From: an uncultured Pseudomonadota bacterium
GTDB taxonomy: Bacteria > Pseudomonadota > Alphaproteobacteria > Acetobacterales > Acetobacteraceae
Assembly (NCBI GenBank): GCA_963772445.1
Contig: CAVYXK010000001.1
Coordinates: 977,721-1,017,720 of the forward strand
Reading direction: 5' to 3'
DNA: 40,000 nt
The notes beneath the pieces are model-generated. The model did no database searches and had not been told where the DNA came from. It saw only the letters and a list, made by a program, of their open reading frames with translations. Each line of letters starts with the position of its first letter. The stretch's first letter is position 1. The position numbers were made by a program, and so were the translations under genes. Shown one piece after another: positions 1,488-19,767 of this stretch.

Positions 1488-3261
1488 CGACGGCCTCGAT
1501 ACGCCGATTGCGCGTCATGTCTGGGAGACGCGCTACCGCATCAGCGCGGCTGAGGCGTCGGTCGTAGCGACCTGGCGGCGCATTCCACGCGCATTGGCTC
1601 AAGTCGAAACGGCAGGGAACAGCGCTTCCTCGACATTTTGCTGGACTTCCAGTTCCTGCCGGGGGGACGCATCCAGGCTGGTGCGGGTACAGAGCGCGAT
1701 GTGACTCTGTTCAACTGCTTCGTCATAGGGACGAATCAAAAATTCGATCCCAGGCATCTTCCGCGCGTTGTAGGAAGGCGCGGTGACGATGCAGCGCGGT
1801 GGCGGGGTCGGTTATGACTTTTCGACGCTCCGCCCAAGCGGCGCACAGGTCCGCACAACCGGTGCGATCGCCTCGGGGCCGGTGTCGTTCATGGATGTGT
1901 GGGATGCGATGTGTGCCACGATCCAGTCCACGGGGCACGACGCGGCGCAATGATGGCGACGCTCCGCCGCGATCACCCCGGTATCGAGACATTCATCGAA
2001 GCGAAGCGCCATACGGGTCGGCTCCGACATTTCAACCTGTCGGTGCAGGTGACCGATGCCTTCATGCGGACTGTTGAACGGGAGGACACCTGGCCCTTGG
2101 TGTTTCCGCAGAGCCACCTCGGCGATGACGGCGAGACGGTCATGCGCGACTGGCCTGGCGAGGCATCTGCCGTGCCATGTCGCATCCTGCGACAAATCCC
2201 GGCGCGCACTTTGTGGGGGAAGCTGCCACATGCCAGTTACGACAGCGGCGAGCCGGGAGTGCTGTTCATCGACCGGATCAATCGGCTGAACAATCTTGGG
2301 TACTGCGAGCGGATCACCGCGACGAACCCGTGCGGCGAAGTGCCGCTGCCACCCTATAGCGCCTGCGATCTGGGCGCAATCAACCTCACGCGGCTGATCC
2401 GCGATCCATTCACACCACAAGCCCGCCTTGACACCGATCGGCTGGTGGCCATCGCATCGACCGCGGTGCGGCTGCTTGACGATGTAATCGATGTGTCGCG
2501 CTTCCCTTTGCCGCAGCAACAGGTTGCGGTATGCTCGGCACGACGAATCGGTCTTGGCATCACCGGGTTGGCGGATGCGCTGATCATGCTCGACCTCCGT
2601 TACGGCAGCGACGCCTCGCTTGCCTTCGCCGGCGAAACAATGCGCATGATCTGCAATGGGCTATCGGCAATCCATCGCCGAGGAGAAGGGCTGCTTCCCG
2701 GAGTTCGTGCGCGAGCGCTATCTCGAGGCGCCGTTTGTCCGTGGGCTGCCGGGGGATATTCGCGACGGCATCGCGCGTCACGGCATCCGCAACAGCCACC
2801 TGCTTGCCATCGCGCCAACTGGGACGATCAGCCTGCTGGCGGGCAACGTCTCAAGCGGGGTCGAGCCGGTGTTCGCGCCCGAGTATCGGCGCATTGTGCT
2901 GAATGCGGACGGTGAGCCGAAACGCTTTAGCCTCATTGATTATGCTGTGCGACTCTGGCGCGAGCAGGCAAGTCGCGCCGACGGCACGCCAGATGCGCTG
3001 GTGACAGCTGCGGCGTTGCCGATTGAAGGGCATCTCGACATGCGGGCTGCATTGCAGCCCTTCGTCGACAACTCGATCTCCAAGACGATCAACGTACCGG
3101 TGAAAACCGGCTTCGCCGACTTTGCACCTCTCTATTGGCTCGCCTACGACAAGGGTCTGAAGGGCTGCACCACATTCCGGCCAACGGCGGCAGCAGACAC
3201 CATCCTCGCTCCGGTCCAGGAATCCGATCACGCGCGTGGGTGCACCAGCGAGTGTCAGTGA
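1474..3261 (+). pseudogene. nrdJ: class II (adenosylcobalamin-type) ribonucleotide reductase, multiply disrupted
   Basis: RNR motifs are spread over three frames: 'IARHVWETRYR', 'FQFLPGGRIQAGAGT', 'MQRGGGVGYDFSTLRP', 'TATNPCGEVPLPPYSACDLGAINL', 'SKTINVP', 'LKGCTTFRP', and a C-terminal Cys pair 'GCTSEC'. Frame changes occur near 1615, 1734, 1932-1935 (G4 run) and 2655. There is also an in-frame TAG at 1771-1773. Confidence 0.75.
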
Positions 3262-3282: not shown

Positions 3283-3837
3283 ATGCGGCCGATCGCCCTG
3301 GATGCGCCGATGTCACTTTACGCCAGCCTGGTATTCGAGCAGTCCTATGGCGGTGTGGAAGGCGACAGCGCCTCCTCGGCCGAGCTGAGTGCCTTGCTAT
3401 CGGCGCTCGCGGAGATGCCGCTGCGCCAGGACCTGGCGGTGACAGGCTCGGTCAATCAACACGGCATGGTGCAGGCGATCGGCGGGGTGAACGAGAAGAT
3501 CGAGGGTTTCTTCGATGTCTGTGCCGGTAGCGGGCTGACCGGCTCGCAGGGCGTGCTGATCCCGGTAGCGAACGTGCAGCACCTGATGCTGCGTTCGGAC
3601 GTGGTTGATGCCTGCGCCGCGGGCCGCTTCGCGATCTATCCGGTGCAGACGATCGACCAGGGCATTGCGCTACTGACGGGCCAGCCGGCCGGCGAGCGGG
3701 GCGGCGATGGAAGCTACCCGGCAAGCTCGGTGAACCGGTTGGTGGAAGAACGGCTGAAGCAGTTTGCCAAGGCGCGCAAGGAGGCAGGTGGCGGGAAGTC
3801 AGAGGCGGACGTGACAGCACGACGGCCAGTTCGGTGA
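3283..3837 (+). pseudogene. Lon-family protease, C-terminal S16 proteolytic domain only (N-terminal AAA+ part missing)
   Basis: Contains '[27 protein letters not shown]' (catalytic Ser context) and '[12 protein letters not shown]'. At 184 aa it lacks any ATPase region. It starts about 20 nt after the nrdJ stop. Confidence 0.7.
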
Positions 3838-4105
3838 ATTGCCGGCTGATCCTCGAAGTTTGTCATGGCGCAGCGGATGCGGAGACCTTGCGGGCAGCGG
3901 TCGAGTTCGCCCGATTACTCGGTCTCGACCTGCACTGCCTGTTTATCGAGGATGAGGCAGGACTGGCGCTGGCGGAGCTGCCATTCGCGCGGAAAATCCG
4001 GCTGCCTACGCACGAGTGGAGCCCGCTCAATGCGGAAACAATCGCTAGGGAGCTGCGGCAGGCGGCAAGCCAGATGCGTCGCTTGCTGGATGAGGTTCTT
4101 CGGGG
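3834..4105 (+). pseudogene. Usp-like hypothetical gene, 5' part, interrupted by the 15-kb insertion
   Basis: A GTG start overlaps the Lon stop. The reading is coherent up to '...RRLLDEVLRG', then runs into terminal-repeat sequence. The same frame resumes at 19171. Confidence 0.6.
4092..4105 (+). repeat. target-site duplication, left copy (GAGGTTCTTCGGGG)
   Basis: Identical 14-mer at 19171-19184. The first G is ambiguous with the end of the inverted repeat, so the duplication is 13-14 bp. Confidence 0.85.
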
Positions 4106-4106
4106 C

Positions 4107-4295
4107 CCCCCAGGGAGCACGTCGTCCGTCCGCATCCATAGGTTGAGCGTGGGCGAAGTCGGCTCAACCGGCCAAAACCGCATTCGGGACCGCAACCAAA
4201 TCGAAATGAGAGTAGCCGCGCCCGCGATCACCACCGCTATGGCACCGGGGCCAGCCAAGCGACGCGCTCAGTCGGCAACGCCGGTCTCGCGGTTC
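4107..4295 (+). repeat. left terminal inverted repeat (189 bp perfect; degenerate similarity continues to ~4650)
   Basis: I checked the reverse complement of 18983-19171 base by base against 4107-4295 and found them identical. Inward of that, only patchy similarity remains. Confidence 0.95.
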
Positions 4296-4910
4296 TGCGC
4301 GGGACCGCCACCAAGTCGCCCGCGCCGCCTGCGTCCCCATTGCATGTCGCCGCGCACGCAAACTGCCGATCGCTCGCCACAACGGTCAGCCGCCGCATGG
4401 CTTATCGGGACCATCGCGATCCGCCGAACCCGGTCCTGCTGTCCCTATAGGCCGGGCGGTACGGGGCGGCCCGGTCCCGGCCTACCCACGCCAGGGCCGC
4501 CAGGAGCCCCGTAGACGGCTGTAAGGCTGCCGCCGCTACCCGGGGGGGGGTCTCTCAAGGGCTTGGAAGCCGCGTGGCCTGGTGGCTGGCGGCGCGGGCC
4601 GGGAGCGCGCCCGTCCCCGTCCGCATCCATAGGTTGAGTCTTGCGACGCTGGTCCCTCGAGAAGCGTCCGCACTATGAGCCGCGTCCGCCCCTTCCCTTC
4701 TCCAAGGCCCGGCTGTGTCGAGGTCGTCCTCTCCCGCGACGCCAAGAGGGTGAACAAGGCTTTGCGTCTGGCGTAAGTGAGCGCCGCTTCCCATGCGACG
4801 CGGCGCCGCAGTCTCGCTGGTCGCGTAGACTGGCCATTCACAGGCTAGCCTGGGATTGCTGCCACTGGATTGGAACGCGGACCGCGCGCCGCGGAAGGAG
4901 AGGCTCATTG

Positions 4911-5894
4911 TTAAACGAGCTGCGCCACCGCTATCGTCTCCGCAGCGATCTGCTCCAACAGCGGAGACGTTGCGGCGAAATAGTCAGGGATCCCTAATTT
5001 CATGCAGGATCGACACAGCTTTTTCTGTCCGCGCCGCCTCTGCACTTCTTCCAGCGGGAGCTCAAGGAAATTAGCTATGACGTTGCTGCTCTGCATCGAC
5101 GAGCCGCAGCAAAGCATCACGTTACCCTTTACATCCAGGGTAACGATTTCCTCGAGCAGCGAACAGCGTTGTGATCTTTGCTCCCGCGAGGTAACTGCCA
5201 AGGCGCGGTCCAGCGGCAAAGCGAAACCTGCGAGGATTTTTTGATCCTCGGGCGTCACGCGACCCTCTGAAAAGTCGATGATCTTTTCAACCGGAAAGAA
5301 CTGCGCCAGGCAGGTGTCGAACTCGAACCCCAGCGACGTCGCAAACTTCTGCATCGGAGCGATTTCGGCAACGTTGTGAAGATAGCGGTGGTAGTACACC
5401 TGAAGTCGTGTCCTCGCGGACGTCGCCGTTCTGGCTTCGGCCAGGCGCCGCATATTCTGCTTCACATCCTCGATGTTGCCCTCGCGATGGCCGATCTCGT
5501 AGACGGCCTGGGTATATCCGGACAGGGAAACACGCAGCCAGTCGGGGTTCTCCGCGAGAAGCGCTATTGGGTCACGCAATACATTGAGGTTCGAGCTTAG
5601 CGCGCAAAACACATCACGAGACTTTATCTCGCGGATAAGCTCGGGCAGGTTGGGGTGCAACAGCGGTTCGGTCCAGTTGTAGAGGCCGACCTGTTGGACT
5701 TCGCATTCGGACAGCGCCTTATCGAGAATTCTACCCAGTAATTCTGGTTCCATCAGGGCGCGCGGCCAAGCTTTTATGTCGCCGCACTTGTTCCCGACAA
5801 CGCATGTCGGGCAACGCAAATTGCAATACGAGAATACATCAATGTAAAAGACATACTTTTTTTGGACGTCGCTCAACCGACATCTCCCTGACAA
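4911..5894 (-). CDS. radical SAM protein (casposon cargo)
   Basis: 327-aa ORF with a 'CNLRCPTC' CxxxCxxC cluster near the N-terminus and a Cys-rich C-terminal region ('VMLCCGSS...CRSCMKLG'). It is visibly more AT-rich than the flanking DNA. Confidence 0.8.
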   Translation of the reverse strand: MSGRCRLSDVQKKYVFYIDVFSYCNLRCPTCVVGNKCGDIKAWPRALMEPELLGRILDKALSECEVQQVGLYNWTEPLLHPNLPELIREIKSRDVFCALSSNLNVLRDPIALLAENPDWLRVSLSGYTQAVYEIGHREGNIEDVKQNMRRLAEARTATSARTRLQVYYHRYLHNVAEIAPMQKFATSLGFEFDTCLAQFFPVEKIIDFSEGRVTPEDQKILAGFALPLDRALAVTSREQRSQRCSLLEEIVTLDVKGNVMLCCGSSMQSSNVIANFLELPLEEVQRRRGQKKLCRSCMKLGIPDYFAATSPLLEQIAAETIAVAQLV

Positions 5895-6313
5895 AGCCGC
5901 GGAACGGCGGCTACGATAGCAGATGGCAAAGCTGCTAGGAAGGGCCAGTTTCTATGCCGGAACGCTCGCCGCCTCCACCGGTGCATCCTCCGTGAGCATC
6001 TGAAGGAGTTGCGCGACTGACGAGCGAACTTACTTGTTCTGTCTGTGGAGGGACTACATTCAGCGATCGTCAGATCCTCTGGGCGGCGCTAGTCTCGGAA
6101 GGGCAGCTCGCGCCACACAACCAGAACCAACGTCAGCGACGCCCGCAATCGCCACCACCGCCACCGCTATGGCACTGGCGCCGGCAAGCCGATGCGAGCG
6201 AATGCCACATTGTCGCCACCCATCACACCGCCCGGATCCAATGACGGCTGGCCGACGCGGCGGACCTACGGGAGGCTACGAGTTCGAGAACATCTGTGGA
6301 CGTCGGCCCACTC

Positions 6314-7066
6314 TCACGCCTTGCGCGCATAGACCACCACCCGCTGCCCGCGCCGGAACTGCTCGTAGTCGTCCGGGGGCGCCGGCAGCACCTGGACAGT
6401 GCCAAACCCGAAGTTGCGCAGCAGGAAAAGCAACGCGTTCAGCGATGGCACCAGAGCGATGTCGGTCGAGCCGCCCTCGCGGTGGTGGGAGTAGTCGGGA
6501 GTCAGGCCGAATACCCCCTCGATCGGGCGCATGTTCTCGTAATGCCCATCCTCGAGCCGGCCCGAGACGTCGTAAGGGAAAACCTGCGTCTCGATCAGCA
6601 GATGCTTACGACACATCTGGCCGGCGAGTCGAAGGGTATGGATAGGGTCTTCGAGATGATAGATGAGCCCATACAACAACACGAAGTCGAACACCTGCTC
6701 CGGGTCGAACGGCATCGTTTGCAGGTCGGCCTGTATGTATTCGACGTTCGTGACGCCCAGCACGTCAGTGACGAGGCGGGCAGCATCGAGGCTGGTGTCC
6801 CTCCACTCATAGCCGCGCACACTCCGGAAGTGGCGGGCCAACTCCACGGTGTAGTATCCCTCGTGCGAGCCGAAGTCGGCCGCCGTCAATGTCTCGGGGC
6901 GCTCCACCTGCTCGGCGACAATCTGAGCCAGCTTGACGCGACGGGAGACGTGGATGGGAAGCACGTCCGCCGGCACGTTGGTCCCGGTGCGGGTGCCGTC
7001 AGGTAGATCGAATTCGTAGAACCAAGTCCGTCCCTTCACCTTCTGAAGCTTTGACGCGAACTCCAT
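6314..7066 (-). CDS. class I SAM-dependent methyltransferase (casposon cargo)
   Basis: 250-aa ORF with a Rossmann-type pattern: 'AADFGSHEGYYTVELARH', 'DFVLLYGLIYHLEDP'. It is co-oriented with the radical SAM gene. Confidence 0.7.
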   Translation of the reverse strand: MEFASKLQKVKGRTWFYEFDLPDGTRTGTNVPADVLPIHVSRRVKLAQIVAEQVERPETLTAADFGSHEGYYTVELARHFRSVRGYEWRDTSLDAARLVTDVLGVTNVEYIQADLQTMPFDPEQVFDFVLLYGLIYHLEDPIHTLRLAGQMCRKHLLIETQVFPYDVSGRLEDGHYENMRPIEGVFGLTPDYSHHREGGSTDIALVPSLNALLFLLRNFGFGTVQVLPAPPDDYEQFRRGQRVVVYARKA

Positions 7067-7083
7067 GCAAGTCCCTCCGACAA

Positions 7084-7396
7084 CTATGGTGCCACATAGC
7101 GCGGACGTAGCGCCAGGAGCGGCTTCTCGACCGTGTGGAGTAGCAGCAGGCCGAGCCCAAGCGCAATCGGAACGGCCACCAGTGACTCAGCCCATCCAGA
7201 GCCAAATGCGATAGCCCTGCCACCAGTGGTGCCAGACGACAGCACGTCGCCCGATAGCACCAGGAACAGCCCGATCCCTGTGCGCCAGTGGGCCGCCAAA
7301 CAGGTAAAGTCCTTGATAGGCCAGAACCAGCAAGGTGGCGAAGCCGCGGAGCTGGTCGATTTCTGGGATGTAGCTGCGATTGGGGCTGGTGGTCAT
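7084..7396 (-). pseudogene. acyltransferase-3-family remnant (frameshifted and internally deleted)
   Basis: The N-terminal signature 'SYIPEIDQLRGFATLLVLAY' lies in one frame. 'GIGLFLVLSGDVL' and a C-terminal-like 'HTVEKPLLALR' lie in another. In total it covers only about 100 codons. Confidence 0.45.
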
Positions 7397-7735
7397 CTGG
7401 GGTTGGACCGCGCTTTCGCGACCGCCAACCATTGAGCCCGTCAGCAGCACTGCCAAGCGCTTGGATGATGTCAAGTTGTCGAACAAATTGAGGATCAGCA
7501 ACCTACAGGCTCTCTACCCACAGCTCCAGGGCTCATTTCCGACAACGTCGCACACCAGCTTATCGGACCGTGAGCGGAAAGGGGCGGATGTCGCAGAAGG
7601 GTGGAAATCGGCGGTCCAAGCATGGGCCCGGCGATGTTCCTTCCCCACGCTATGCCGCTCGGCACGGGTTAGATCGACGGCCGGCCGGGTTCCATCCCGC
7701 AGCGGAGCTTGTAGCGCTACCACGCCCCTTAGAGC

Positions 7736-9979
7736 TCATTCCTGCGGCAGGAACGGGATGAAATCAGGCATGGCTTCAAGCAGCATATCTTCGTCGATCT
7801 CCACAGCGCCGCCGTTTTCGTCCAAGATTTCAATGCGTCTATCGAAATCTGCCGGTAGTTTGCCTTCGCTCTCAGCTGAGACGGGCTGCGCACGGGGAAA
7901 GGTGACGATATACCCCTCGTTGCTGACGGTGATGTGGTTCGGATCGCGCTTTGTCCTCCATTCAAAGCTCTCCTGTCGCTCTACATCTTCCCATTTCCCG
8001 GCCAGCCAAGGCTTGTTACGATGCAAGGCAAGCCGACACCCATAGAACACGCGCACTGCGACCGGAACGGTAGAAAATAACCGCTCTTCGAGCCGGCGTT
8101 CCCTGAACTCCGCCTGACAAAGGCGTTCATACAATTCGCTCCAGGCCGCAACAAAGCGTGGCGCGGCGTCTCCGATGACGGAACGTGGCGCACCACGCGA
8201 TTTGAGCGATTCCTCCTGCTTGGAAGGGGACCAGTAGACGCCAGGCTGCACAACGAACAGATCGGGCCAAACCTTGGCGTCCCATTGCCCGAGCCCGTCT
8301 CCTATATCGAGCGACAGTGGGCGCGCGCTGTAAACGGCGTCGGTCGCCAGCATGAAAACGGCCTCGGGATCTTGTGCCAGCGCCTCAATAAGCCGCGCCC
8401 GGGTCGCCGCGGTGATCAGCCCCGCCGATACGGCGTCGTGGTAAGGCGCGCGCCCGCTGCGCTGCGCCAGCTTCCCGTACAGGCTGTTGAGCGCAAACTT
8501 CAGTGGTTCGCCCCGAGCGTCGGGTCCGAGCCCGCGGCGCAGATCGTAAAGTTCATCGACCCAATCAAACAGCCGACAATCGCATTTGCGGCGGGCGACC
8601 CACAGGTCCAGAATGGCGACTTCGGCATGCAGACATCGGCGCGCCGCCTCGATCTCGGTTGACCAGTACCAGCCCGTTCCTTGCCGCGGCCAGTACAGCC
8701 CGCCGTTCTTGCCTCGGAATGGAAGGCCGCACCAAAACCCGTCCGGATGGTGGAAACGGACCTTTGCAACGTATATTCCGTCCTCTGGCAATCGGCCTGT
8801 GCGCGGTTTGTGTTGCCATCGCGTATGTAATGGACAGGGCAGATTGCGCATCTCCGAAGGATAAGCACTGTGTATATCGTATTCGTAGATGGGTCCCTTT
8901 AATAGCCCCAGCCGTGATACCTCAAAGCGCCCCCCGTAGTAGGCGCTGTTTGCAGCGATTTCGAATTGTGGATCTCGCCGGGGTCGGCGCGGACCTCCAG
9001 AAGTTTTATGTGCCGCCGTCTCTCTTGGCGTGAGCGGGCGCTTCGGTATGCCGTGTTTCTTGAAGAGCGCTGCGGCAAGCTCCCCCGCGCCGCTCCATTC
9101 CCGCGGCCGAATTCCAACCTCAGTGCAGGTTTCGCGAAACTTCTCCATCAGCATCGCGAGATGGCGGCATTCCAGCGTGCAGTATTCCCTGATCTCGTTA
9201 GTCAGCTCTAGGAATTCCGCGCGACGGCTCTTGTTCTCAACGATCATGGCGCGCTCTTCGTCGCTGCCGATATTCCACTTAGTAATAGCACCCACAAACG
9301 AGGATTGAAAAAAGCCGAACGCTTCGTAAACAGTGCGGCACGACCGATCGATTGGCTTTCGGGTGACAGGATCGATCCGAGAGACCCGAAAATATTTTCC
9401 TGGCTGATACGTAATTGCGTAATCGCCCCAATATGTAGAGAGCGGACCATAGTTACCCTGTTTTGGATCTAATATCCTGCGTATTGTAGATCCGTTGTTC
9501 GCTCCGATGATTCCGCGCAAGATTTGGTTCGCGTCGTATCCCACAAAATAGTAGCCGACGAGGATTGGCTCGGCGGGGAGGGACAGCAGGAATTCAAGGC
9601 AGTCACGAGTGGTTAGACGCTCGCCATCGCGATGGCAGACATGGGTTTCCTCTGAATTCGCGGCGACCATAAGCAGATAGTTCTGCAGTCCCTCGTAGTC
9701 GGTTCCGCCGCCTTCCCCATCGATCGCCATGAACGGCCGCGGTGTCTTGCGAGACTGCCTTTGCTCTCGCTCTCGTTTGCGCTGTTCGGGCGTCTGTAAC
9801 GTGCGCGCCCTATGCTTGCGGCTGCGTTCGCGCTCGCGCTGCTCGGCTGTTTGCAGCCTGCGTGCTTCTTGCTTGCGTGTGCGCTCTCGCTGACGCCGAG
9901 CTTCGACGGTGCGCTCGTATTGGACGCCGCGGGCTTGTGTCATATCGGCGATGCGGCCAGCAACTTCAGGATTGATCAT
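7736..9979 (-). CDS. family B DNA polymerase (casposon replicase candidate)
   Basis: 747-aa ORF. Exo I-like 'FMAIDGEGGG'; Exo II-like 'GYYFVGYDANQIL'; motif A 'YEYDIHSAYPSEM' (DxxSxYPS); motif B 'KFALNSLYGKLAQ' (KxxxNSxYG); motif C-like 'FMLATDAVYS'. It has an N-terminal Arg/Glu/Gln-rich repeat extension. Confidence 0.8.
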   Translation of the reverse strand: MINPEVAGRIADMTQARGVQYERTVEARRQRERTRKQEARRLQTAEQRERERSRKHRARTLQTPEQRKREREQRQSRKTPRPFMAIDGEGGGTDYEGLQNYLLMVAANSEETHVCHRDGERLTTRDCLEFLLSLPAEPILVGYYFVGYDANQILRGIIGANNGSTIRRILDPKQGNYGPLSTYWGDYAITYQPGKYFRVSRIDPVTRKPIDRSCRTVYEAFGFFQSSFVGAITKWNIGSDEERAMIVENKSRRAEFLELTNEIREYCTLECRHLAMLMEKFRETCTEVGIRPREWSGAGELAAALFKKHGIPKRPLTPRETAAHKTSGGPRRPRRDPQFEIAANSAYYGGRFEVSRLGLLKGPIYEYDIHSAYPSEMRNLPCPLHTRWQHKPRTGRLPEDGIYVAKVRFHHPDGFWCGLPFRGKNGGLYWPRQGTGWYWSTEIEAARRCLHAEVAILDLWVARRKCDCRLFDWVDELYDLRRGLGPDARGEPLKFALNSLYGKLAQRSGRAPYHDAVSAGLITAATRARLIEALAQDPEAVFMLATDAVYSARPLSLDIGDGLGQWDAKVWPDLFVVQPGVYWSPSKQEESLKSRGAPRSVIGDAAPRFVAAWSELYERLCQAEFRERRLEERLFSTVPVAVRVFYGCRLALHRNKPWLAGKWEDVERQESFEWRTKRDPNHITVSNEGYIVTFPRAQPVSAESEGKLPADFDRRIEILDENGGAVEIDEDMLLEAMPDFIPFLPQE

Positions 9980-9988
9980 CTGATCCTC

Positions 9989-10390
9989 CTAAGCTGCGGC
10001 CCGTGGGCGCATGCCGGCACGGGTAGAGTAGTACAGCCGCCAAGTGGGACTATGCTGTGGGCCGGGAAAAGGATCCGGGACATCGGCGGGAACGCGATCC
10101 GGATATGCCTCGGTTACCCGCAAGAACTGATCCTGTTGCGTGATCGACAAGCTCTTGAAGGTATGGCGATCTTGTTCGTTTAGCTTGGAACGGAAATCCC
10201 CGCGCTTTTCGATTGCCCGGAGCGCTCGCCGCGCCGCCGATACCCGTCGTCTCGCTCGCCGGCGCGTTTGCGGCGTCTTTGCTCGGGTGGCGTTCGCTTG
10301 GGCGAGAGCGGCTTCCCGTTTCAGGATGGCCTTACGCAGTCGCGCGTAGCTCGCGGTGCCAGGACGATAGGGATTGCGCCCCTTAGTCAT
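9989..10390 (-). CDS. hypothetical basic protein (start chosen at MTKGRNPY)
   Basis: The ORF lies directly upstream of polB on the same strand. Its ATG overlaps the stop of the preceding ORF by 8 nt (coupled arrangement). It is Arg/Ala-rich with no recognisable motif. Confidence 0.45.
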   Translation of the reverse strand: MTKGRNPYRPGTASYARLRKAILKREAALAQANATRAKTPQTRRRARRRVSAARRALRAIEKRGDFRSKLNEQDRHTFKSLSITQQDQFLRVTEAYPDRVPADVPDPFPGPQHSPTWRLYYSTRAGMRPRAAA

Positions 10391-10925
10391 CGGGTGTGCA
10401 CCCAATGTAAACGGTGGTCTTCCCATCGCGCGTCACCCGACGGAAATGGCGTGCTTCCCACCACCACAGACCCGAGTCATCGATCCGGAAATCGGGCTCC
10501 GACGAGTACAGGATCGGGTCGAGCCGGGGACAGAACTCGGGTGTGTCGTCCGCCACCCCGAGCCGGGCATACTCGGCGGGGTATGGTAGAATCAGCTCCG
10601 GCGGCCATCCGTTCGGTGTTAACATGAACCGTGGTTGCCAACGTACTCGTTGGCCAATAGCGCCCCACAGCAGCGGCCGGCCAAGCCTAGCCAAGTCGGC
10701 GAGGCATCGGCCGACGGCGCGCTCGACGGCGGGATCGTCACCTGCCGACAAGATCAGTCCGGCTGCAAAAGTGTCTTGTTCGGCTGGCCAGCGCTCGCCC
10801 CAATCCACAAGGCTGGCGAACAGGCTCCATGACAGCTTGAGGTCGAGATCGGGGCACCGCTCGCGAAGGCGATACGCAGCATCTCGCACGGGCGAGCGAC
10901 CAAACCGCGCCGTCGTCATCAGCAC
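10383..10925 (-). CDS. hypothetical protein
   Basis: 180-aa ORF in the polB operon with non-repetitive composition. No family recognised. Confidence 0.5.
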   Translation of the reverse strand: MLMTTARFGRSPVRDAAYRLRERCPDLDLKLSWSLFASLVDWGERWPAEQDTFAAGLILSAGDDPAVERAVGRCLADLARLGRPLLWGAIGQRVRWQPRFMLTPNGWPPELILPYPAEYARLGVADDTPEFCPRLDPILYSSEPDFRIDDSGLWWWEARHFRRVTRDGKTTVYIGCTPDD

Positions 10926-11129
10926 GGGGCCACCGCCGGCCAGCGTGGTGAAGCGTGCAAGTGCGCTCGGGGGGCGTCCCGAGCCAGCAGCCCGAACTCG
11001 GCTGCACGAGCTTGCATGCCACCTGGAAATTGGTTAGAAATTTCCGAGTCACTGTCATCTCCTTGCAGCGCTCACAACGCTGCGCAATTTTCGAGCCCCG
11101 ACGCTTGCCAGGCGCCGGGGCTCATGTTT

Positions 11130-11450
11130 TCAGGTCATGTGCACCACGCGTGGGTGGTTCGGCTCGACGCTGGCGGCGAACGCGGCACCAGCGGATTGGC
11201 TGAGCGTCCTGCTGGCGCGGCGCGGCGCTTCAACCAGAGACTCGCACCGCGCCTCGGGTGGAAGTGCGCCGGCGAGGTCGCAGCCGACGGTCTCGACAGT
11301 CAGCGTGCGCAGCAGGAAGCCGGCGTACTCGGATCGCGCTGCGACGGGCAGCTTGCACTCACCGATCCACATCGAAATACGAGCGACCGAAACGCCAAGG
11401 CGCTGCGCGGCCTCTTCGATCGTCAAAAAGCGCGGGAAGTGGGCAGCCAT
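11130..11450 (-). CDS. small HTH DNA-binding protein (MerR/excisionase-like)
   Basis: N-terminus 'FLTIEEAAQRLGVSVARISMWI' is a typical helix-turn-helix. It is divergent from the 11574 gene across a relatively AT-rich 123-bp spacer. Confidence 0.6.
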   Translation of the reverse strand: MAAHFPRFLTIEEAAQRLGVSVARISMWIGECKLPVAARSEYAGFLLRTLTVETVGCDLAGALPPEARCESLVEAPRRASRTLSQSAGAAFAASVEPNHPRVVHMT

Positions 11451-11573
11451 CGGGGGTCCTCCGGCTGCCGAACGTACCCGATCCTTTATCTACACAGGTG
11501 CACTTTTGGTGGTCATTTGTAATCGACCAGTCGCGGCGGCAGGAGTAGGCTCATTGGGCAGAACGGGCAGCGC

Positions 11574-12512
11574 TTGATGGTTGTTGTGCGACGTCCCAGG
11601 AAACCCAAAAAGCTGAACGAAGCTACGCTCATTGTTCTAACCGGGATTTCACGCCGTAACCTGACGCGCTGGCGCCAGCAAGGGTTGATCCGGCCCGTAG
11701 AACCGCGCCGCGGGCGCGGGCCCGGGCGCGGCACCACGCCGCTCCAGTATGCGAACGTCGAAGTGCCGAAAATCAATCGCCTGAAAGAATTGAGGCGGGA
11801 GTTCAAGAAGGTTGTCGAGTGGCGCTGGCGTCTGTGGCTCGACGGCTACCCCGTTCGGATCGCCCCCGACCTTGCCGACACGCTCCATCGGTTCAGGACT
11901 CTGGCATCGAAAATCAAAACGCTTGACGACATCGAGACAAAGATCTCCGCTAGTATTTGGAAGCCGACGGATATGCCGCGCGGCAATCCATTGCGAGTGA
12001 TCTTTCGCAGCCTCGGTCGGAACGATCTGCGCTCGCTGACGACGATGCTCATTTGCGTCGTTCTCGGGATCCGATTGCCGCTGTTCGACGAACCGAACCC
12101 CTACCCGTTTCAGATCTTCAAGCGCGCCTTCGGATTGCCGAAAGAGTGGGAAATGCCGCCGGGTCTCTTCAACGTCTTCCCGTCCATGCATGAACAGATC
12201 CTAAATGCGCTTTCGAAGGCCACCACCGACGAATTGGAAGGGGCAAAGGCCGCATGCCGGTTCCTGTCGGGCCTTCTCGACAACCCCGAGAATTGGAGAC
12301 GCGGCGCTATTGTCGTCAGTGGTGCCCCATTACCCTGGCGGCCGATCAAGCTCGCCAGTTTGATATGGCCGTCGCCAGTCGTGCGTGCCGCGACCGTTGG
12401 CCTCATCATCCTCTTCATGCGCGGCTTCAAGTCTGCGCTCGGCGAAGAAGGCGCGGCTGCCTTCGCTTCGATCGCGAGCGAGATGAGCATCTTGTGGCCG
12501 GAGTCCACGTGA
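11574..12512 (+). CDS. hypothetical protein with N-terminal HTH
   Basis: 'ATLIVLTGISRRNLTRWRQQGLIRP' is HTH-like. 312-aa ORF immediately upstream of the Cas1-like gene. Confidence 0.55.
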   Translation: MMVVVRRPRKPKKLNEATLIVLTGISRRNLTRWRQQGLIRPVEPRRGRGPGRGTTPLQYANVEVPKINRLKELRREFKKVVEWRWRLWLDGYPVRIAPDLADTLHRFRTLASKIKTLDDIETKISASIWKPTDMPRGNPLRVIFRSLGRNDLRSLTTMLICVVLGIRLPLFDEPNPYPFQIFKRAFGLPKEWEMPPGLFNVFPSMHEQILNALSKATTDELEGAKAACRFLSGLLDNPENWRRGAIVVSGAPLPWRPIKLASLIWPSPVVRAATVGLIILFMRGFKSALGEEGAAAFASIASEMSILWPEST

Positions 12513-12595
12513 TGGACCTCTGCCGCGACCAGTTGTTCGGTCGCACCAAGCACGGCGCCTCCGGCCCGAACAATATGGAAAGCTAAGGCGCGCGC

Positions 12596-13987
12596 ATGCA
12601 CGCGGATGACACGAATTACACCGTGGTCAAGAACGGCGTGGTCGTCGTAAGCGGCACCGGCCCGGCAATCCGCGTAGATGGCAATCGGCTCGTCATTCGC
12701 GATGGTCCGCAAGAGACGCGGCCGCTCGCTCTGACGCGGGCGGAAGCGGCCCGAAGGCTACGGCACGTTATCGTTTGCGGCCACGCGGGCGGGTTCATCA
12801 CCTTCGATGCCTTGCGATGGTTGCGCGATACGGGCGTGGCGTTTTCACAGCTCGATTGGGATGGAGCCATAATCATCGCTTCCGGTCCGCGGGGCCCCGA
12901 TCGACCCGCTCTACGCCGAGCGCAAGCTCTCGTTTGCAGCGGCGTCATACCGAAAACGACCGTGGCCATCACTCGCGAAATCCTGCGAGTCAAATTGAAA
13001 GGCCAGGCTGCAATCGCCAGGCTGATGGGATCCGCGGATGCGAGCACGATGATCGACAAGCTCGCTGCGGCGATCGGGCGCGAGACGGATGGGAGCAAGG
13101 TGCTATCGGTCGAAGCTCGCGCCGCATCGATCTATTGGAAGTTGTGGAAGGACGTACCTGTCAGGTTTGCGCGCCGCAACCCCCAGCGTCTTGGGACTAA
13201 CGGCCGATGGCGCCCCGGTCGGTCCGATCTCTGGCTTACATTCGGCCCGCGAGCCTCGCTGTTGACCGGGAAACCGTTCCGAGCGACGACACCGGGGAAT
13301 GCCCTGCTCAACTACCTGTACGCGCTTTTGGAATCGGAGATGACCATCGCCCTGCTCGCCGCGGGGCTTGATCCAGGAATTGGCATGTTTCATGTCGACA
13401 TGGATGGCCGATCATCGCTAGCTCTCGACGCGATCGAGGCAGCCCGTCCCCACGTCGATTACTGGATGCTCGCGTATCTCGCCTCGTCCGCCTTCGCAAA
13501 CCGCGACTTTACCGAGCTTTCGGATGGTGAGGTTCGCCTAACACATCCGCTCACTTCTCACCTCGCCCATAGTGGGGCTCTCTGGCAAAAGGCGTGCGAG
13601 CCGATTGCGTACTGGCTCGCGCGGAGCTTCAGCCAGGCGACCGGCGTGACCGCGGTCCTGACGGACGACCGTAAGATCGTGGTGCAGCAGAGGATCCCGT
13701 CGAAGCAATTAGAACGGAAGCAGAGGCTCGATCCGCTGACACAGCTGCCGGCTTTCCGTGGCCCGGCGCGCGGCCGCCGGCCGATGCCGCTGCAAGGCGG
13801 GCTCAAGGACAGCCCAGCCCCCCTAGGGTGCTGGGAGTGCGGAAAAGCAATCCCCGGCAAGCAGATTAGGTTCTGTTCAAAAGAGTGCGCCAGAGCCTTC
13901 CCTGTCGACGAGCTATGCCGCCGCGCGGGGGGGCTAGCTGCGCCGATGTTGGCTTGGGGTGGAGACGTGGGAATTCCATCAAGCTAA
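12596..13987 (+). CDS. cas1: Cas1-family integrase (casposase candidate), no associated CRISPR array
   Basis: N-terminal beta-domain pattern: 'IRVDGNRLVIRDG...HVIVCGHAGGFITFDALRWLRDTGVAFSQLDWDG'. Helical-domain motifs: 'VEARAASIYWKLW' and 'PGNALLNYLYALLESEMTIALLAAGLDPGIGMFHVDMDGRSSLALDAIEAARPHVD', which supply the Glu, His and Asp/Glu catalytic positions. Extra C-terminal 'CWECGKAIPGKQIRFCSKEC'. Confidence 0.8.
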   Translation: MHADDTNYTVVKNGVVVVSGTGPAIRVDGNRLVIRDGPQETRPLALTRAEAARRLRHVIVCGHAGGFITFDALRWLRDTGVAFSQLDWDGAIIIASGPRGPDRPALRRAQALVCSGVIPKTTVAITREILRVKLKGQAAIARLMGSADASTMIDKLAAAIGRETDGSKVLSVEARAASIYWKLWKDVPVRFARRNPQRLGTNGRWRPGRSDLWLTFGPRASLLTGKPFRATTPGNALLNYLYALLESEMTIALLAAGLDPGIGMFHVDMDGRSSLALDAIEAARPHVDYWMLAYLASSAFANRDFTELSDGEVRLTHPLTSHLAHSGALWQKACEPIAYWLARSFSQATGVTAVLTDDRKIVVQQRIPSKQLERKQRLDPLTQLPAFRGPARGRRPMPLQGGLKDSPAPLGCWECGKAIPGKQIRFCSKECARAFPVDELCRRAGGLAAPMLAWGGDVGIPSS

Positions 13988-14033
13988 GGTGAAGGGAAGC
14001 TAAGCATGTTACTCGAATGTGTAAGGAGAAGCG

Positions 14034-17000
14034 ATGGTCGAGGATTTCCGGACGCAGATCACGCGCGAGGACATTCAAGAAGCAATCGCAGCGTTGGAAC
14101 GAGGGGAGGTCCACGAATTTGGTCCGTCGATCTTCTACGACATTCTTGAAGGCGGCCGGCGATACCCTCCTAAGGCAGTCGTCGGCCTCGCTGCGCGCCG
14201 TGTACTTGGCCGGGTACTCAGCCCACACGAATTTTCGGGAGGCGAAGCGTCTTGGGCGTTTCGATTGCTTCGCAGCCGAGGTTTCACCGTAGTGAAGAAG
14301 CTGAGGAACCGCAACATGTCTGAGCTTCCCAGAACACCACCTACCGCTCAGGTTTGGATCGAGGACACCAACACTGCTGTCCACGACCATGGCGGACTGG
14401 GGTGGGAATTCGGCACGTGCTTGTGGAGCCCATCGAGTGCCGAGGGTGGGGGCGATTGGTATTCGCTTATGCGAGAGCCAAAGCTAAATGATTTCGTTAT
14501 CCATTTCGATGGCAGTGTAATTGTCGGTTGGTCCCGGGTGGCTGGGCCGTTCCAGGAGGGGACGGAGGCACCACCAAATCCTGCCCAGTGGGCAGGGCGG
14601 CCTTCGTACTATCGGATTCCATTGACGGATTATCGGGACTTTCCCAACCAAGTCCCGCTGTCCGAGTTCATAGTTCGGCACCACGATGCGCTCACAGAAG
14701 AGCTTCGGACAGACACCCCGAAGCGATTCCCATTTATCATCTACAACGACACAATACGCCGCGCACAGGGCGCATATGTGACTCGCTGCACCCCCAAGCT
14801 GTACGAGCTAATCTGGAACGAGGTCTATCTAAACAACGAGCCTGAACCCTTCGATCCCATTGGCCGCACGTGGAGAAGGCGTCCCAGAGTTGAGGAGCGG
14901 ATTCGGAGAAAGCTGCAGATCGCCATTCCGAGTGATGAAGTACGGGGCGCGGCGCTTGCGGTCCTTGGTTGGGCAATCGAGGCGGCCGATGAGGATCGCA
15001 GCGATGCTTGGTATTTGCGCGAGACGGAGCACGGTCTCCGCCTATTGGCTGGCCGGTTATTCGCTTGCGAGCTACGCCGCTCAAGGCTCCGTGTCTCCGT
15101 TATCGGGCCGGTTCGAGATGACCTACTCGGTATGCTCGGAGCCGAGATAGAAGACGACTTCAAATGGATACCTGGAGGCGTGATCGTCGGCATGCCGGTG
15201 GACAAGGCGGAAGTGGCGCTTTCGCTACTAAAAGACGCAATGGACGCTTTTCTCGGTAGCGCGATGTCCCAAGTAAAGCGCGGCGTCAGCCCGGAAAACC
15301 ATACCCCAGAGGCGATCAACTACGTGTCGACAGTACTCGGACGCGATCTGCCTCAACCTGAACTAGGTTCCGAGCCTTCTCTTTCGGATGTTGACGCTGA
15401 CGCCGGAGAGGAGGATCTGGGCACCTCCAGAGAACCTAAAGTTCGTGGGCGAGCTCCTATCTTCGAGAACGGTCAGCGTTCAATCGCCTCTTTGATTAGC
15501 GACATCGAACGAGGGGTCATCGCGCTTCCCGATTTACAGCGCCCCTTTGTATGGGAGGACACGAAAGTACGTGACCTACTCGATTCGCTGTTCGTGGGGT
15601 TTCCGGTCGGTACGCTCGTCTTCTGGCACACTTCGGACGACAAGGATGCTCGTGCACTCGGTGCGAAGCGACCAGGCCTTCGAGCCACTACCCTTGTCAT
15701 CGACGGTCAACAGCGCCTCACGTCACTATACGCCGTGATGAAAGGGGAAGAGGTGGTTGGAAAAGATGGCGAGATGCGCAGGATCACCATCGCCTTCCGG
15801 CCACGCGACGGCCGGTTCGAGGTCGCAGACGCTGCGATTCGGCGGGATCCTGAGTTTGTACCGAGACGTCACAGATATCTGGAATGGCATCCGTCCGAAG
15901 CCTCAGATTCGTCGTGACCTGATGAACGCGCTGCGCGAGAGAGGCCGCGTCGTAGACGAGCGCTACGAAGACGCCGTCGAACGCAACCTAGACCGCGCGC
16001 ATTCCATTGCCGATTATCGTTTCCCGACCGTCGATATCCGCAGAACCGCAGCAACTGGTGAAGCAACCGAAGAAGACGTTGCAGACATATTCGTTCGCAT
16101 CAACAACCAGGGCGTGCGCCTCGGTCAGGCCGATTTTGTGCTCACGTTGCTCTCTGTCTATCACGGCGAGCTACGGGAAAGGCTTGAGGAGCGCGCGAGA
16201 GCGATGTCCGTCGGGGCAGTCGTCGGGTTGGACACGCAGCAGCTCCTGCGGGCGGTGTGCGGCGTGGCTTTCGGCCGTGCCCGCATGTCGGCGGTTTACC
16301 GGTTTCTGCGCGGCGTTGATCCAACTACGGGTGAGGCCGATCCCGAGCGACGCGTAGCTCTTTTAGATAAGCTCGATAATGCAGCTAACGACTGCATCGA
16401 GCCCACGCCGTGGCGCGATTACCTCTTACGCGTTAAGCACGCGGGCTTCGTAAGCCCAAGCCTAATTGCGTCAAAAAACGCGATCGTCAACGCTTACGCT
16501 TTTTACATTTGCGGCCGCAAGGCAGCTGTCCCGAAGCCCAAGCTCGACGGAGTCATCTCGCGGTGGGTGTTCGCATCGCTCCTCACGGCCCGTTACTCTG
16601 GAGCGTCGGAAACTGCCTTTGAGGAAGATCTTGCACGTCTGGCGCGAGTTGACGGGAGAGGCCCTGATGATTTCACGCGAGAACTTGACGGTGCTATGGC
16701 AGAGACGCTAACCGGCGATTACTGGACACAAACGCTTGTTGCGGCCCTAGAAACCCAGAGAGGGCGCGCACCAGCAGCGCTGGCATTTCGCGCAGCACAA
16801 GTCGTACTTGGGGCGCGTGCGCTTTTTTCGGACCAGCTGCTCCAAAACCTCTTGGACGAATCTCAATCGGCGGGGCGTACCGCTCGCGAGGCTCACCACC
16901 TCTTTCCGGTGAACTGGCTACGATCCCGAGGGATCATCGATCGTCGGCGTGTTAACCAAGTAGCCAACCTTGCGGACGCGGGCTGGCATGAGAACACCGT

Positions 17001-17676
17001 GATTGGTGGCCAAAGCCCGTCGGTGTATGTCGCTCGGTTACGAGATCAGCTCGGAATCGATGACGACCGATGGGGCCGAATGTGTGCTGAGCATGCGCTT
17101 CCACTCGGGTGGGAGCGGATGGATTACGACGAGTTTATTCGTCATCGTAGAACCAGGATGGCCGAGCTTATCCACGTCGCTTACCGTCAGCTCGGCGGCG
17201 AAGCGGATGCTTCGCCGCTTACACCGCCGTGGTTTTTGCCCGGTGCAGAGGAGGTCTGGCAGCGCATCGCCGAGACTGAGCGCGCGCTTCGAGCCCTGGT
17301 TCGGGAGGTGTATGCGTCAACATTCGGCGACACTGCGGCAGCGACGATTTAGGCGAAATTAGCGGAGCGAGAACGTGAGTCGCTGATGCGCGCGCTCCGC
17401 GCCCGTCCACCAGGTTCGGACCCCTTAACCGTCGTAGACTATCTGTACCTAGGCCAACTACCGCCACTGCTCTTTGCAAACGATGTCTGGCAGGAGGTTA
17501 GGTCAAAGCTGGGCAGCGAACCGGATGCCAAGCAGCGTCTCCAAGGCGCCGTTAGCCAGATTGCGCCTGTTCGAAACGAGATTGCTCACGTGCGCGAAGT
17601 CTCACCGGATAGGTTGTTGAAAGCGACGGTCGCCTGCGATGACATTCTCGCGTTGCTCGGAGGGCGATCGCGATGA
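14034..17676 (+). pseudogene. GmrSD-like type IV restriction protein (DUF262 + DUF1524-like), with N-terminal reader-like domains and C-terminal Swt1-like HEPN; decayed
   Basis: DUF262 motifs 'LPDLQRPFVWE', 'FPVGTLVFW', 'VIDGQQRLTSLYAV'. C-terminal His-Me-like 'AHHLFPVNWL'. HEPN Rx4-6H 'VRNEIAHVRE'. PUA/EVE-like segment 'DFVIHFDGSVIVGWSRVAGPF'. One frameshift near 15860 (ORFs 14034-15917 and 15757-17352 overlap). In-frame TAG at 17350-17352. Confidence 0.65.
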
Positions 17677-18538
17677 GGTTTCCTTCGGGCTCACGGGAGA
17701 TTTGCAGCGTTACGATACGTTGCGGCAAAGCCTTTCTGCGACGGGCGGTTCTGATCCTGCCCTTGGCGGCATTGCTGCCATCACAGAGCAGTCGCGCCGA
17801 CGATTTCGAACCACTATGTCTTGATGGCTTCTGCATTGGCCTACCGATAACGGCGCCTCGCTTTGAGCAAATTGCATGGATTGTCCCCCGAAAGGATTTT
17901 GCACAAGATCCCTGCACAGGGATCGGATGCCAGCCTGAAGTTGCATTCCGGGGCTATCCGCCTGCGGAACAGGTTCAACTTGCGGCCGCCTTGAGTTGGG
18001 TGTTCCACGATACCAGCGATGCGCTACCTTATAATGTCGTTACTGAAAAAATCTCTCCATACTGCGCGATTACCATTACGAATGCAATCCTTCTGCGCGC
18101 GGTATGTGGGGTGAGCGACGGTTCATTGGTGCCTACAAAAGCATTCCCAGCAACTATCTGACGGTGATCGGTCTGCGCCTTATTGGAGGTGAACTTCGTG
18201 TTTACCGGATTGCACGGCAATATCCGTATCGCAACCCGGCCGAATTGCGTGGTCTGGCGCAGGAGCTGTGGCCGGAGTTCGGGCGCTCGGTTTTGTTTGT
18301 AGATTACCTAAGCTCGAACGCACCCTATGAAGTGATGCGCCAGGGAAAAGATGGCTGGTTTGGTCGGAGCACACTGTTCAACACCTCCGACATGGCCGAC
18401 AATGCTGCAGAGTTGGTTTTAGTAGATCCTCGAACTCGGCAACTACTCCAACCAACGTCAATGCCAAGCAGCGGAGACGTAAAGCCTCTGCCGATGTCTC
18501 TCGCGGCGCAATGCGAACGGAATCTCCCGCTTCAATGA
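17673..18538 (+). pseudogene. hypothetical secreted protein, frameshifted near 18100
   Basis: N-terminal signal-like 'AVLILPLAALLPSQSSRA'. Two overlapping ORFs (17673-18161 and 18104-18538) in different frames. Confidence 0.4.
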
Positions 18539-18982
18539 TTTCGGCAGGAGTATGAGGTAGTTCATTGTTGCCATCGCGACCTCTCGTCGGGATAGAGCAG
18601 TAGGGGACTGGCTCTTCGACCGCCCCCTTATTCCACTGATCTGGACGCGTTCCCCCGCCACTCAACTCATCCAAGCGGACGCACGGGGACACGAGCGCGC
18701 TCCGTGTGCTCACAAAACCAACGGCCGTCCCGGAGCGCCGGAGCTGCTCACCAAGAGCGCCCGACAGGCGCGGATGAACCGGGAGGGAGAAGGTTCCTGG
18801 CTCCCGCTGAGCCCGCACCAGCAGCCTTCCTGGGCGTGTCGTACGGGTCGCCAGAGCACCCTACAGCCCCCCGTGGGCTCAGGCGAGCGCCTCCCCCGCG
18901 GTCACCTTCTACCCATGGGTCCCAGTCCGTCCGGGATCCCCGCAATGGGTGCGCAGGGCGACCTGGTTGCGGTCCTGACACG

Positions 18983-19171
18983 GAACCGCGAGACCGGCGT
19001 TGCCGACTGAGCGCGTCGCTTGGCTGGCCCCGGTGCCATAGCGGTGGTGATCGCGGGCGCGGCTACTCTCATTTCGATTTGGTTGCGGTCCCGAATGCGG
19101 TTTTGGCCGGTTGAGCCGACTTCGCCCACGCTCAACCTATGGATGCGGACGGACGACGTGCTCCCTGGGGG
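18983..19171 (-). repeat. right terminal inverted repeat (189 bp perfect; degenerate similarity from ~18650)
   Basis: Exact reverse complement of 4107-4295. Confidence 0.95.
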
Positions 19172-19184
19172 AGGTTCTTCGGGG
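19171..19184 (+). repeat. target-site duplication, right copy (GAGGTTCTTCGGGG)
   Basis: Identical to 4092-4105. Confidence 0.85.
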
Positions 19185-19767
19185 CGTTGGGGTCGCGAGC
19201 GAATTCGAGGTGCTGCGTGGTGATCCCGCCGCCTGCATCGCCGCAGTCTGCCAGACCAGTGATATCATCATCGTTGCAGAACCCGGTCCCCCCATTGCCC
19301 GCACCGCGTATGGGGTTACGCGTCTGCATACCGCAGCGTATGCATCAGCGGCATCGGTCCTGCTGCTCCCGGCGCGTCACAAACCCCGGCGAGGTCACGT
19401 GGTGGCGGTACTGGCGGATGCCACGGATGGGAGCCTGGAGGTGGCGTGCCGGATTGCGACGGCGGCCAATGAAGATGTGGCCATCTTGGTATCGAATGAT
19501 GGGGCGGCAAAGCGCGTGAGAGAACGTGCCCGCATCCTGTGTCTTTCACCCGAGCGGATCACGCTTCGTCCTATCCCCACCACCCGGGCGGATGATGTGC
19601 TGGTCGCGTTGGCCGGCTTGCATGAACGCCTGATCGTGATGACGCGCCCGACTGCTGCTACTGATGACGCGTCCGGCGCTTCCCGCATTTCCGCAGCGCG
19701 CGGTGTGCCGGTGCTGCTGATCGAGGCGGCCAACGAGGGGTCTGCCGCGTCTTCGGCAAATTCGTAG
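19171..19767 (+). pseudogene. Usp-like hypothetical gene, 3' part
   Basis: The frame reads 'EVLRGVGVASEFEVLRGDP...' and ends 'ARGVPVLLIEA...' with TAG at 19765-19767. It joins in frame to 3834-4105 once the insertion and one duplication copy are removed. Confidence 0.6.

Follow-up and report, generated by a model that had tools for sequence, protein, structure and literature searches.

Which system does a cas1 homologue with a cysteine-rich C-terminal extension serve, and which part of the protein is left to it for recognising DNA? The question is raised by an open reading frame (ORF) in a stretch of 40,000 nucleotides (the window, to which all positions below refer) from an uncultured Pseudomonadota bacterium of the Acetobacteraceae (contig CAVYXK010000001.1, here C1). 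Casposases, integrases of the Cas1 family, are thought to be ancestral to the CRISPR spacer integrase, and to our knowledge biochemical work has been confined to archaeal casposases, namely those of families 1 and 2. The analysis described here indicates that the ORF very probably encodes the casposase of a complete, recently inserted casposon, and that its lineage has kept a zinc finger while the terminal helix-turn-helix (HTH) was deleted. The finger is already known and widespread; what sets the protein apart is that one lineage, which appears to be active, has secondarily lost its terminal HTH.

A cas1 homologue within a complete casposon

12596..13987, + strand: gene of the casposase, an integrase of the Cas1 family; 463 aa; reading frame open from the ATG to the TAG stop, which is included

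The 463-aa product matched the Pfam family PF01867 (Cas_Cas1) with an E-value of 1.7e-32 (113 bits, cut-off 22.3) and the generic Cas1 equivalog TIGR00287 over residues 54-316 (86.9 bits, cut-off 71.7). All CRISPR-subtype-specific Cas1 models scored far under their cut-offs on this protein. The closest solved protein by sequence was the M. mazei casposase (entry 6opm; phmmer E 7.9e-16, identity approximately 20-22%), followed by A. fulgidus Cas1. Together, the Pfam, TIGR00287 and casposase matches bore out the original prediction of a Cas1 homologue of 463 aa, and the strings quoted in its support are present in the protein (VEARAASIYW at residue 172, GMFHVDMDGRSSLALDAIEAARPHVD at 263 and CWECGKAIPGKQIRFCSKEC at 412-431).

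The gene lies between two terminal inverted repeats (TIRs), which are bounded by a target-site duplication (TSD), and it shares this interval with a gene for a family B DNA polymerase (PolB).

4107..19171 (C1:981827-996891): complete casposon, 15,065 bp
4107..4295: left TIR, 189 nt, 100% complementary to 18983-19171
18983..19171: right TIR, 189 nt, perfect
4093..4106: TSD, left copy AGGTTCTTCGGGGC, exact, 14 bp
19172..19185: TSD, right copy AGGTTCTTCGGGGC, exact, 14 bp
7736..9979, - strand: PolB, 747 aa, PF03175 DNA_pol_B_2 5e-16, phrog_11768 6e-45; 2.6 kb upstream of cas1

Since Cas1, PolB, TIRs and a TSD of approximately 14 bp define casposons (PMC4046053), the ORF was assigned as a casposase. 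A survey of homologues for co-occurrence with PolB, as had been proposed, placed PolB not only in the same element here but also in synteny with cas1 in four loci of alphaproteobacterial metagenome-assembled genomes (MAGs; L002, L004, L005 and L006) and on four metagenomic contigs (P0012, P0004, P0025 and P0053).

Full-length copies of the TIR occur in the genome at these two ends only. The 100% identity of the TIRs over 189 bp, together with the undamaged TSD, implies a recent insertion. If the element is taken out along with one copy of the TSD, the flanks (3834-4106 and 19186-19767, + strand) join in a common frame of 285 codons, which shows that a host gene was split by the insertion. This gene had no Pfam or NCBIfam match. 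No empty target site was recovered from 30 related genomes, one of which carries the host gene at 44% identity. The split gene is neighboured by a PRPP-synthetase-like gene, a ribonucleotide reductase (RNR) gene and a gene for a Lon_C-like protease, which places the insertion target in an accessory region.

The genome is of a soil-type alphaproteobacterium (8.3 Mb in 19 contigs, 62% GC, 92.6% complete), and its closest genomic relatives are uncultured Alphaproteobacteria MAGs. Profile searches for Cas2 (PF09827) and Cas4 (PF01930) returned no match anywhere in this 92.6%-complete genome, nor was a second cas1 found in it, and no tandem repeats occur within the 40-kb window. The absence of cas2, cas4 and a repeat array, first noted for the surroundings of the gene, thus extends to the whole available genome for the two cas genes and to the whole window for the array.

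Predicted fold and active site

A structure of the protein was predicted with AlphaFold2 (AF2) from an alignment of 89 diverse relatives, down to 33% identity. The resulting model had a mean predicted local distance difference test score (pLDDT) of 88.2 and a predicted template-modelling score (pTM) of 0.90, and superseded an earlier one built from 20 close relatives (pLDDT 64.6). It displays the two-domain fold of Cas1, with an N-terminal beta domain and an alpha-helical catalytic domain.

12596..13630, + strand: Cas1 core, residues 1-345, N-terminal beta domain and alpha-helical catalytic domain; AF2 pLDDT mostly >90
13112-13114 (E173), 13391-13393 (H266), 13427-13429 (D278) and 13436-13438 (E281), + strand: catalytic codons, checked

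When the model was compared with solved Cas1 and casposase structures, the casposase 6opm_A ranked first. It was the top match in Foldseek (E 3.1e-15, TM-score by target 0.79), and VIA-align superimposed the two with a Z-score of 30.7 and a root-mean-square deviation of 2.5 Å over 319 residues (model residues 13-389). Approximately 50 Cas1 and casposase entries aligned with Z-scores of 17-31 over model residues 12-389, with the CRISPR Cas1 entries ranking behind 6opm_A.

The active site of the M. mazei casposase consists of E162, H232 and E247 (PMC6977970). These residues align to E173, H266 and E281 of our protein, the numbering of the PDB chain being offset by 17. E173, H266, D278 and E281 are invariant across the 89-sequence alignment. 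The catalytic-site context is therefore retained, as had been proposed, with substitutions neither among the 89 relatives nor relative to the M. mazei enzyme. Because the active-site residues both align with those of M. mazei and stay invariant, the enzyme looks catalytically competent as judged from its sequence.

A Cys4 module with features of a treble-clef finger

The Cas1 fold finishes near residue 350, and the C-terminal extension thus amounts to approximately 115 aa, in good agreement with the approximately 120 aa expected. The Cys4 arrangement, in contrast to the original prediction, does not form the very end of the protein, as 32 residues follow it.

13631..13810, + strand: poorly conserved linker, residues 346-405; low conservation in two alignments; pLDDT 55-82; ratio of non-synonymous to synonymous substitution rates (dN/dS) 0.34 against the related locus L008
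13811..13903, + strand: Cys4 module, predicted to bind zinc, residues 406-436, motif CxxCG-x10-FCSxxC
13829, 13838, 13874 and 13886, + strand: Cys codons of the module (C412, C415, C427 and C431)
13904..13984, + strand: short C-terminal tail, residues 437-463; longer relatives (long forms) continue here into an HTH-containing region of approximately 115-135 aa

The module was modelled with a pLDDT of 87-92 and is followed by a helix and a disordered end. C412, C415, G416 and C427 are invariant among the 89 relatives, and C431 is conserved in at least 90% of them. In the model, C412 and C415 are located in a short beta-hairpin (strands at 411 and 418), and C427 and C431, the CxxxC pair, at the start of a helix (429-434). 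Profile matches of the finger were weak and below cut-off, namely to DUF2116 (best 16.9 bits, cut-off 26.8), zf-FCS (E 0.086) and PLATZ; the matches to DUF2116, a 'probable treble clef' family, ranged from E 0.0065 to 0.05, again below the curated thresholds. Taking together the hairpin CxxC, the CxxxC at the start of a helix, the 'FCS' signature and these weak matches, the predicted structure fits a treble-clef/FCS-type finger better than a zinc ribbon, in which two beta-hairpin knuckles would each contribute a CxxC pair. Matches to Zn_ribbon_3 were obtained in two long-form relatives alone (P0024, E 0.18; P0046, E 0.0071). A feature search of the ESM Atlas with residues 400-463 returned YacG, DUF2116, NinF/NinG and zf-FCS as leads, which all scored <0.9 and are not counted as evidence. 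Hence a conserved Cys4 module, probably binding zinc or another metal, stands as proposed, while a treble-clef arrangement suits the model better than the zinc ribbon first assigned to it.

The same motif is found at the same place in most full-length relatives checked from a set of 552 homologue clusters described below. On this distribution, the zinc finger would be a standard accessory domain of a large bacterial casposase family. A 2023 review restates the presence of zinc-binding domains (ZBDs) on family 3 casposases. The Cys4 module is accordingly not an added novelty of this protein, as had been suggested: the motif is family-wide across its relatives, and a zinc-binding domain was published in 2014. 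The family 3 casposase AceAut-C1 carries a ZBD and an HTH at its C-terminus, NitAL212-C1 an N-terminal ZBD and a C-terminal HTH, and the casposases of StrAlb-C1 and HenMar-C1 neither (PMC4046053).

Loss of the HTH in the short-form lineage

A word-indexed search with the casposase yielded 618 homologues, and an exhaustive HMMER search 552 clusters (50% identity) at E<1e-30. Many of the homologues reside on contigs of 13-17 kb, approximately the size of one element, which suggests that either the long TIRs interrupt assemblies or the element also exists in free form.

The length of most relatives is 500-590 aa, with approximately 115-135 further residues after the finger, including a conserved '...PHPRH...' segment. 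The long tail of P0031 matched HTH_31 (2.6e-5) and HTH_3 (3.4e-4), and Cas1 followed by zinc finger and HTH was the commonest architecture among the representatives checked. Our casposase and its approximately 25 closest relatives (73-88% identity), by contrast, stop 15-45 residues past the fourth Cys. The extension does not align to an HTH, and in this point the original prediction was correct. As approximately 25 independent metagenomic sequences share the same short end, it is not an assembly artefact.

In a maximum-likelihood tree of the Cas1 core, calculated with the tail left out and rooted at the midpoint, the short forms around our casposase group in a single clade (11 rows, SH-aLRT 97) that arises within the long forms, and long forms occupy all deeper branches. 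A second short clade comprises L005, P0117 and P0119 (support 100). Single short sequences are scattered elsewhere in the tree, some of which may be truncated ORFs. We further built a hidden Markov model (HMM) from 64 long-form tails and searched the window in six frames with filters off. No HTH remnant was detected, the best hit (E 0.3) being noise. This rules out a frameshifted or relocated HTH within the window and leads to the conclusion that the region was deleted. The distribution of short and long forms makes a strong case that the HTH was lost in this lineage, in which the zinc finger would be the sole accessory domain left. The finger does not appear to be an alternative solution that replaced the HTH, as had been assumed, since the HTH follows the finger in most relatives and it is this lineage that lost it.

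The stop codon of cas1 lies at the point where the conserved core of the element gives way to a cargo arm that is specific to each relative. It is plausible that an exchange of cargo at this junction caused the deletion of the HTH.

Element ends and a candidate binding site

The termini of the window element read CCCCCAGGGAGCACGTCGTCCGTCCGCATCC..., and those of L004, an element with a long-form casposase and a TSD of 13-15 bp, read CCCCCTGGGAGCACGTCCGTCCG... The terminal sequence CCCCC(A/T)GGGAGCACGTC...CGTCCG is common to both. Because the short-form and the long-form element share it, recognition of the ends appears not to have changed with the loss of the HTH. No obvious consensus was evident between the TSDs AGGTTCTTCGGGGC and GTCTCATAGCTGA.

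4126-4146 (+), 4617-4637 (+, subterminal) and 19132-19152 (-): exact copies of the 21-nt motif CCGTCCGCATCCATAGGTTGA

The motif occurs 20 nt inside each end and, in addition, approximately 490 nt inside the left end; these 3 copies compare with 0.01 expected. It is kept near both ends of L008 (81-103 and 14703-14725), while much of the ends has diverged, and represents a candidate binding site of the casposase.

A 45-nt stretch 2 kb inside the left arm (6152-6196) is 76% complementary to a part of the right TIR (19012-19056) and may have been left behind by an earlier terminus or by a nested insertion. The short-form element L005, from an uncultured alphaproteobacterium, has TIRs of 588 nt at 99% identity (435-1022 and 16796-17383), which extend to approximately 980 nt with weaker identity, and its terminal sequence differs (CACGATGCGAGCG...). 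No TSD was evident at the ends given by the repeat finder for L005, and its true termini may lie elsewhere.

Core genes and cargo of the element

PolB matched PF03175 ('organellar and viral', protein-primed) and phage PolB phrogs only; no other PolB model reached E<0.01, and a comparison with PDB sequences gave no meaningful match. The remaining core genes are the following.

11574..12512, + strand: conserved core gene located immediately upstream of cas1; its 312-aa product has a weak N-terminal HTH resembling MerR/HTH_17
9989..11450, - strand: three small genes of the core, located between polB and cas1; products of 145 aa, 180 aa and 106 aa, the last an excisionase-like HTH protein

The core of the related casposons consists of PolB, 2-3 small genes, an HTH gene and cas1. 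A gene that contains an HTH directly precedes cas1 on the same strand in all elements examined. It is of the 312-aa type in the window, L008, P0012 and L005, and of the Xre type in L004, L002 and P0025; a gene of approximately 300 aa also adjoins the long-form cas1 of P0053. Whether the 312-aa upstream gene goes together with short-form cas1 was examined among the elements, and no such correlation was upheld. Since similar genes accompany long forms too, the upstream gene is, as far as its distribution indicates, a general core component and not a specific substitute for the lost domain.

The same core is combined with varied cargo on the contigs P0012, P0004 (L008), P0025, P0023, P0024 (L015) and P0053. 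The cargo arm is GmrSD-like in the window, and elsewhere NACHT, SIR2, HATPase_c_3 with reverse transcriptase, or PIN-TPR. Taken as a whole, the defence-like cargo comprises NACHT/DUF4062-TPR, SIR2, SIR2-NACHT, HATPase_c_3 with reverse transcriptase, DUF3800, TIR_2 and PIN-TPR-GreABC, and from these annotations the related elements look like shuttles for defence genes.

In the window, the cargo gene with the GmrSD_N domain (DUF262) is split between the ORFs 14034-15917 and 15757-17352 (+ strand; profile positions 1-80 and 103-196). The frameshift reflects either decay or an assembly indel. The RNR large-subunit gene outside the element is likewise split (ORFs 1899-2915 and 2656-3261, + strand; profile positions 73-319 and 329-522). 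With two split genes within 40 kb, indel errors of the assembly are a possibility in the window.

Proposed mechanism, activity and alternatives

By homology with the casposases of M. mazei and A. boonei, an oligomer of the casposase would bind the two identical ends of the element. The E173/H266/E281 site, with D278, would join the 3'-OH ends to target DNA at positions 14 bp apart, and repair of the gaps would give rise to the observed 14-bp duplication. The treble-clef/FCS-type finger predicted for residues 406-436 would help to bind DNA, either the ends or the target. Deletion of the HTH at the junction of cas1 with the variable cargo arm would have left the finger alone for this role.

The short-form casposase appears to be under purifying selection: relative to L008, dN/dS was 0.13 in the core and 0.18 in the finger, both values coming from a small sample, and the short clade conserves the Cys4 motif together with a common post-finger sequence (ARAFPVD...). 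We lean towards the view that the short form, devoid of an HTH, acts autonomously. For the more specific proposal, namely that the clade which shed its HTH transposes autonomously with a treble-clef finger of only approximately 30 residues as accessory module, we consider the chances to be even.

Several points weigh against this interpretation. All Pfam matches of the treble-clef kind are under threshold (best E 0.0065-0.009), and the whole-model alignments of VIA and Foldseek stop at approximately residue 389, so that the finger lies outside them. The binding of zinc and of DNA (ends or target) by the finger are predictions, DNA binding being its most likely function. The tree was rooted at the midpoint alone, and the term 'loss' rests on long forms holding every deep branch. 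As the genome is 92.6% complete, a second casposase is possible. Finally, a family 2 casposase without its C-terminal HTH, the delta-HTH variant of the M. mazei enzyme, loses integration (PMC6977970).

The role of the finger is the point at which an alternative survives best, although we regard it as rather unlikely. The Cys4 module might be a protein-protein or oligomerisation element that stabilises a tetramer or docks PolB, and not bind DNA at all. Contacts between proteins are a frequent task of treble-clef fingers, the protein-binding zinc finger YacG is among the atlas look-alikes (all <0.9), and the pTM of 0.90 despite a flexible linker suggests that the module may pack against the core. 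The position of the finger next to the HTH in the long forms, and the recurrence of ZBDs with HTH domains among the DNA-binding proteins of casposons (PMC4046053), argue in favour of a DNA-binding finger.

Because family 2 requires the HTH, its loss might also have impaired the enzyme, and the element might have been mobilised by a different enzyme or while in a different host. Under this scenario, the short form would be non-autonomous and either moved in trans by a long-form casposase or now immobile. In addition to the inactivity of the delta-HTH M. mazei casposase in integration, decay of related loci is in line with such a fate, as both cas1 and polB of L006 are frameshifted and polB of L002 is truncated. 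We nevertheless consider it unlikely. The identical 189-bp TIRs and the intact TSD point to a recent insertion, and the ORF is the sole Cas1 homologue found in the genome. The clade comprises at least 11 sampled sequences with conserved Cys4 and post-finger sequences and signs of purifying selection, and a second short-form lineage, L005, is located in an element whose 588-nt TIRs are 99% identical. Moreover, casposases of family 1 naturally have no HTH and yet are active (PMC8464041).

The HTH function might instead have moved to a separate protein: in this case, the upstream 312-aa HTH protein would recognise DNA in trans and the finger would recruit that protein. The HTH gene adjoins cas1 upstream on the same strand in all elements examined, and the 312-aa type accompanies both short-form lineages (window, L008, P0012 and L005). 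However, long forms also have an upstream gene of approximately 300 aa (P0053) or of the Xre type (L004 and L002), and in P0025, a short form, a gene of the Xre type takes its place; the upstream partner is therefore not specific to enzymes lacking the HTH. The HMM of the long tails, in addition, does not match the 312-aa protein, and we judge a transfer of the HTH function to this protein to be improbable.

The matches of generic Cas1 models and the automatic annotation of homologues as 'CRISPR-associated endonuclease Cas1' might suggest that the ORF encodes a Cas1 for CRISPR adaptation, left over from a decayed CRISPR-Cas locus or belonging to an unusual one. This is extremely improbable: neither cas2 nor cas4 was found in the genome, the window contains no repeat array, the gene is located between TIRs with a TSD and shares its element with a PolB gene, the closest solved structure is a casposase, and all subtype-specific Cas1 models are far below cut-off.

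Relationship to described casposons

Like our casposase, AceAut-C1 (Krupovic et al. 2014, PMC4046053) is a bacterial casposase with a ZBD C-terminal to Cas1. Compared by description only, its Cas1, ZBD and HTH correspond to the architecture of the long-form relatives; it differs from our enzyme in the HTH after the ZBD. The family 2 casposase of M. mazei (6opm; Hickman et al. 2020, PMC6977970) shares the Glu/His/Glu site and a TSD of approximately 14 bp. At the C-terminus this archaeal enzyme is the reverse of the one described here, as it lacks a zinc finger and has an essential HTH. Ca. Nitrosopumilus koreensis AR1 has a family 1 casposase (PMC8464041) that functions with no C-terminal HTH, as our enzyme presumably does, and the element of which carries a PolB of the same PF03175/protein-primed kind. 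That casposase is archaeal, comprises 347 aa and has no accessory domain, whereas ours keeps the zinc finger; the AR1 casposon integrates site-specifically at the aEF-2 gene, while the present element is inserted in an unrelated accessory protein-coding gene.

Family 3 casposons occur in the same host class, Alphaproteobacteria (HenMar-C1, Hyphomonas, Citromicrobium; PMC4779613), and these elements share the core of cas1 and polB, the TIRs and the TSD with ours. Published family 3 elements are described as having a PolB of the RNA-primed type, as in family 2, an HNH endonuclease and intergenic insertion sites, in contrast to the PF03175 PolB and the insertion in a coding gene observed here, and the Cas1 of HenMar-C1 is reported to have no extra domains, in contrast to the finger of our casposase. 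No PF01844 HNH domain was detected inside C1:981827-996891 at E<=0.1, a search that does not cover divergent HNH variants, and a Pfam scan of core ORFs gave no such match either. What links the present group to family 3 would be the architecture of Cas1, ZBD and HTH that its long forms share, by description, with AceAut-C1. As PolB matches only PF03175 and the element has no PF01844 HNH, this alphaproteobacterial group may constitute a separate casposon family.

Significance

The general picture of casposons remains unchanged by these results, a zinc-binding domain having been known since 2014. They extend it in that bacterial casposases form a large metagenomic family, with 552 clusters at E<1e-30, and that the HTH was dropped and the finger kept in at least one lineage that seems to be active. 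In family 2, the HTH is essential, yet it was disordered in the crystal and on its own showed no DNA binding. If the clade without the HTH is indeed autonomous, the finger, and not the HTH, would be the key element of bacterial casposases for binding the ends or the target, and long and short forms with near-identical termini would provide a matched pair for working out what function the casposase HTH has.

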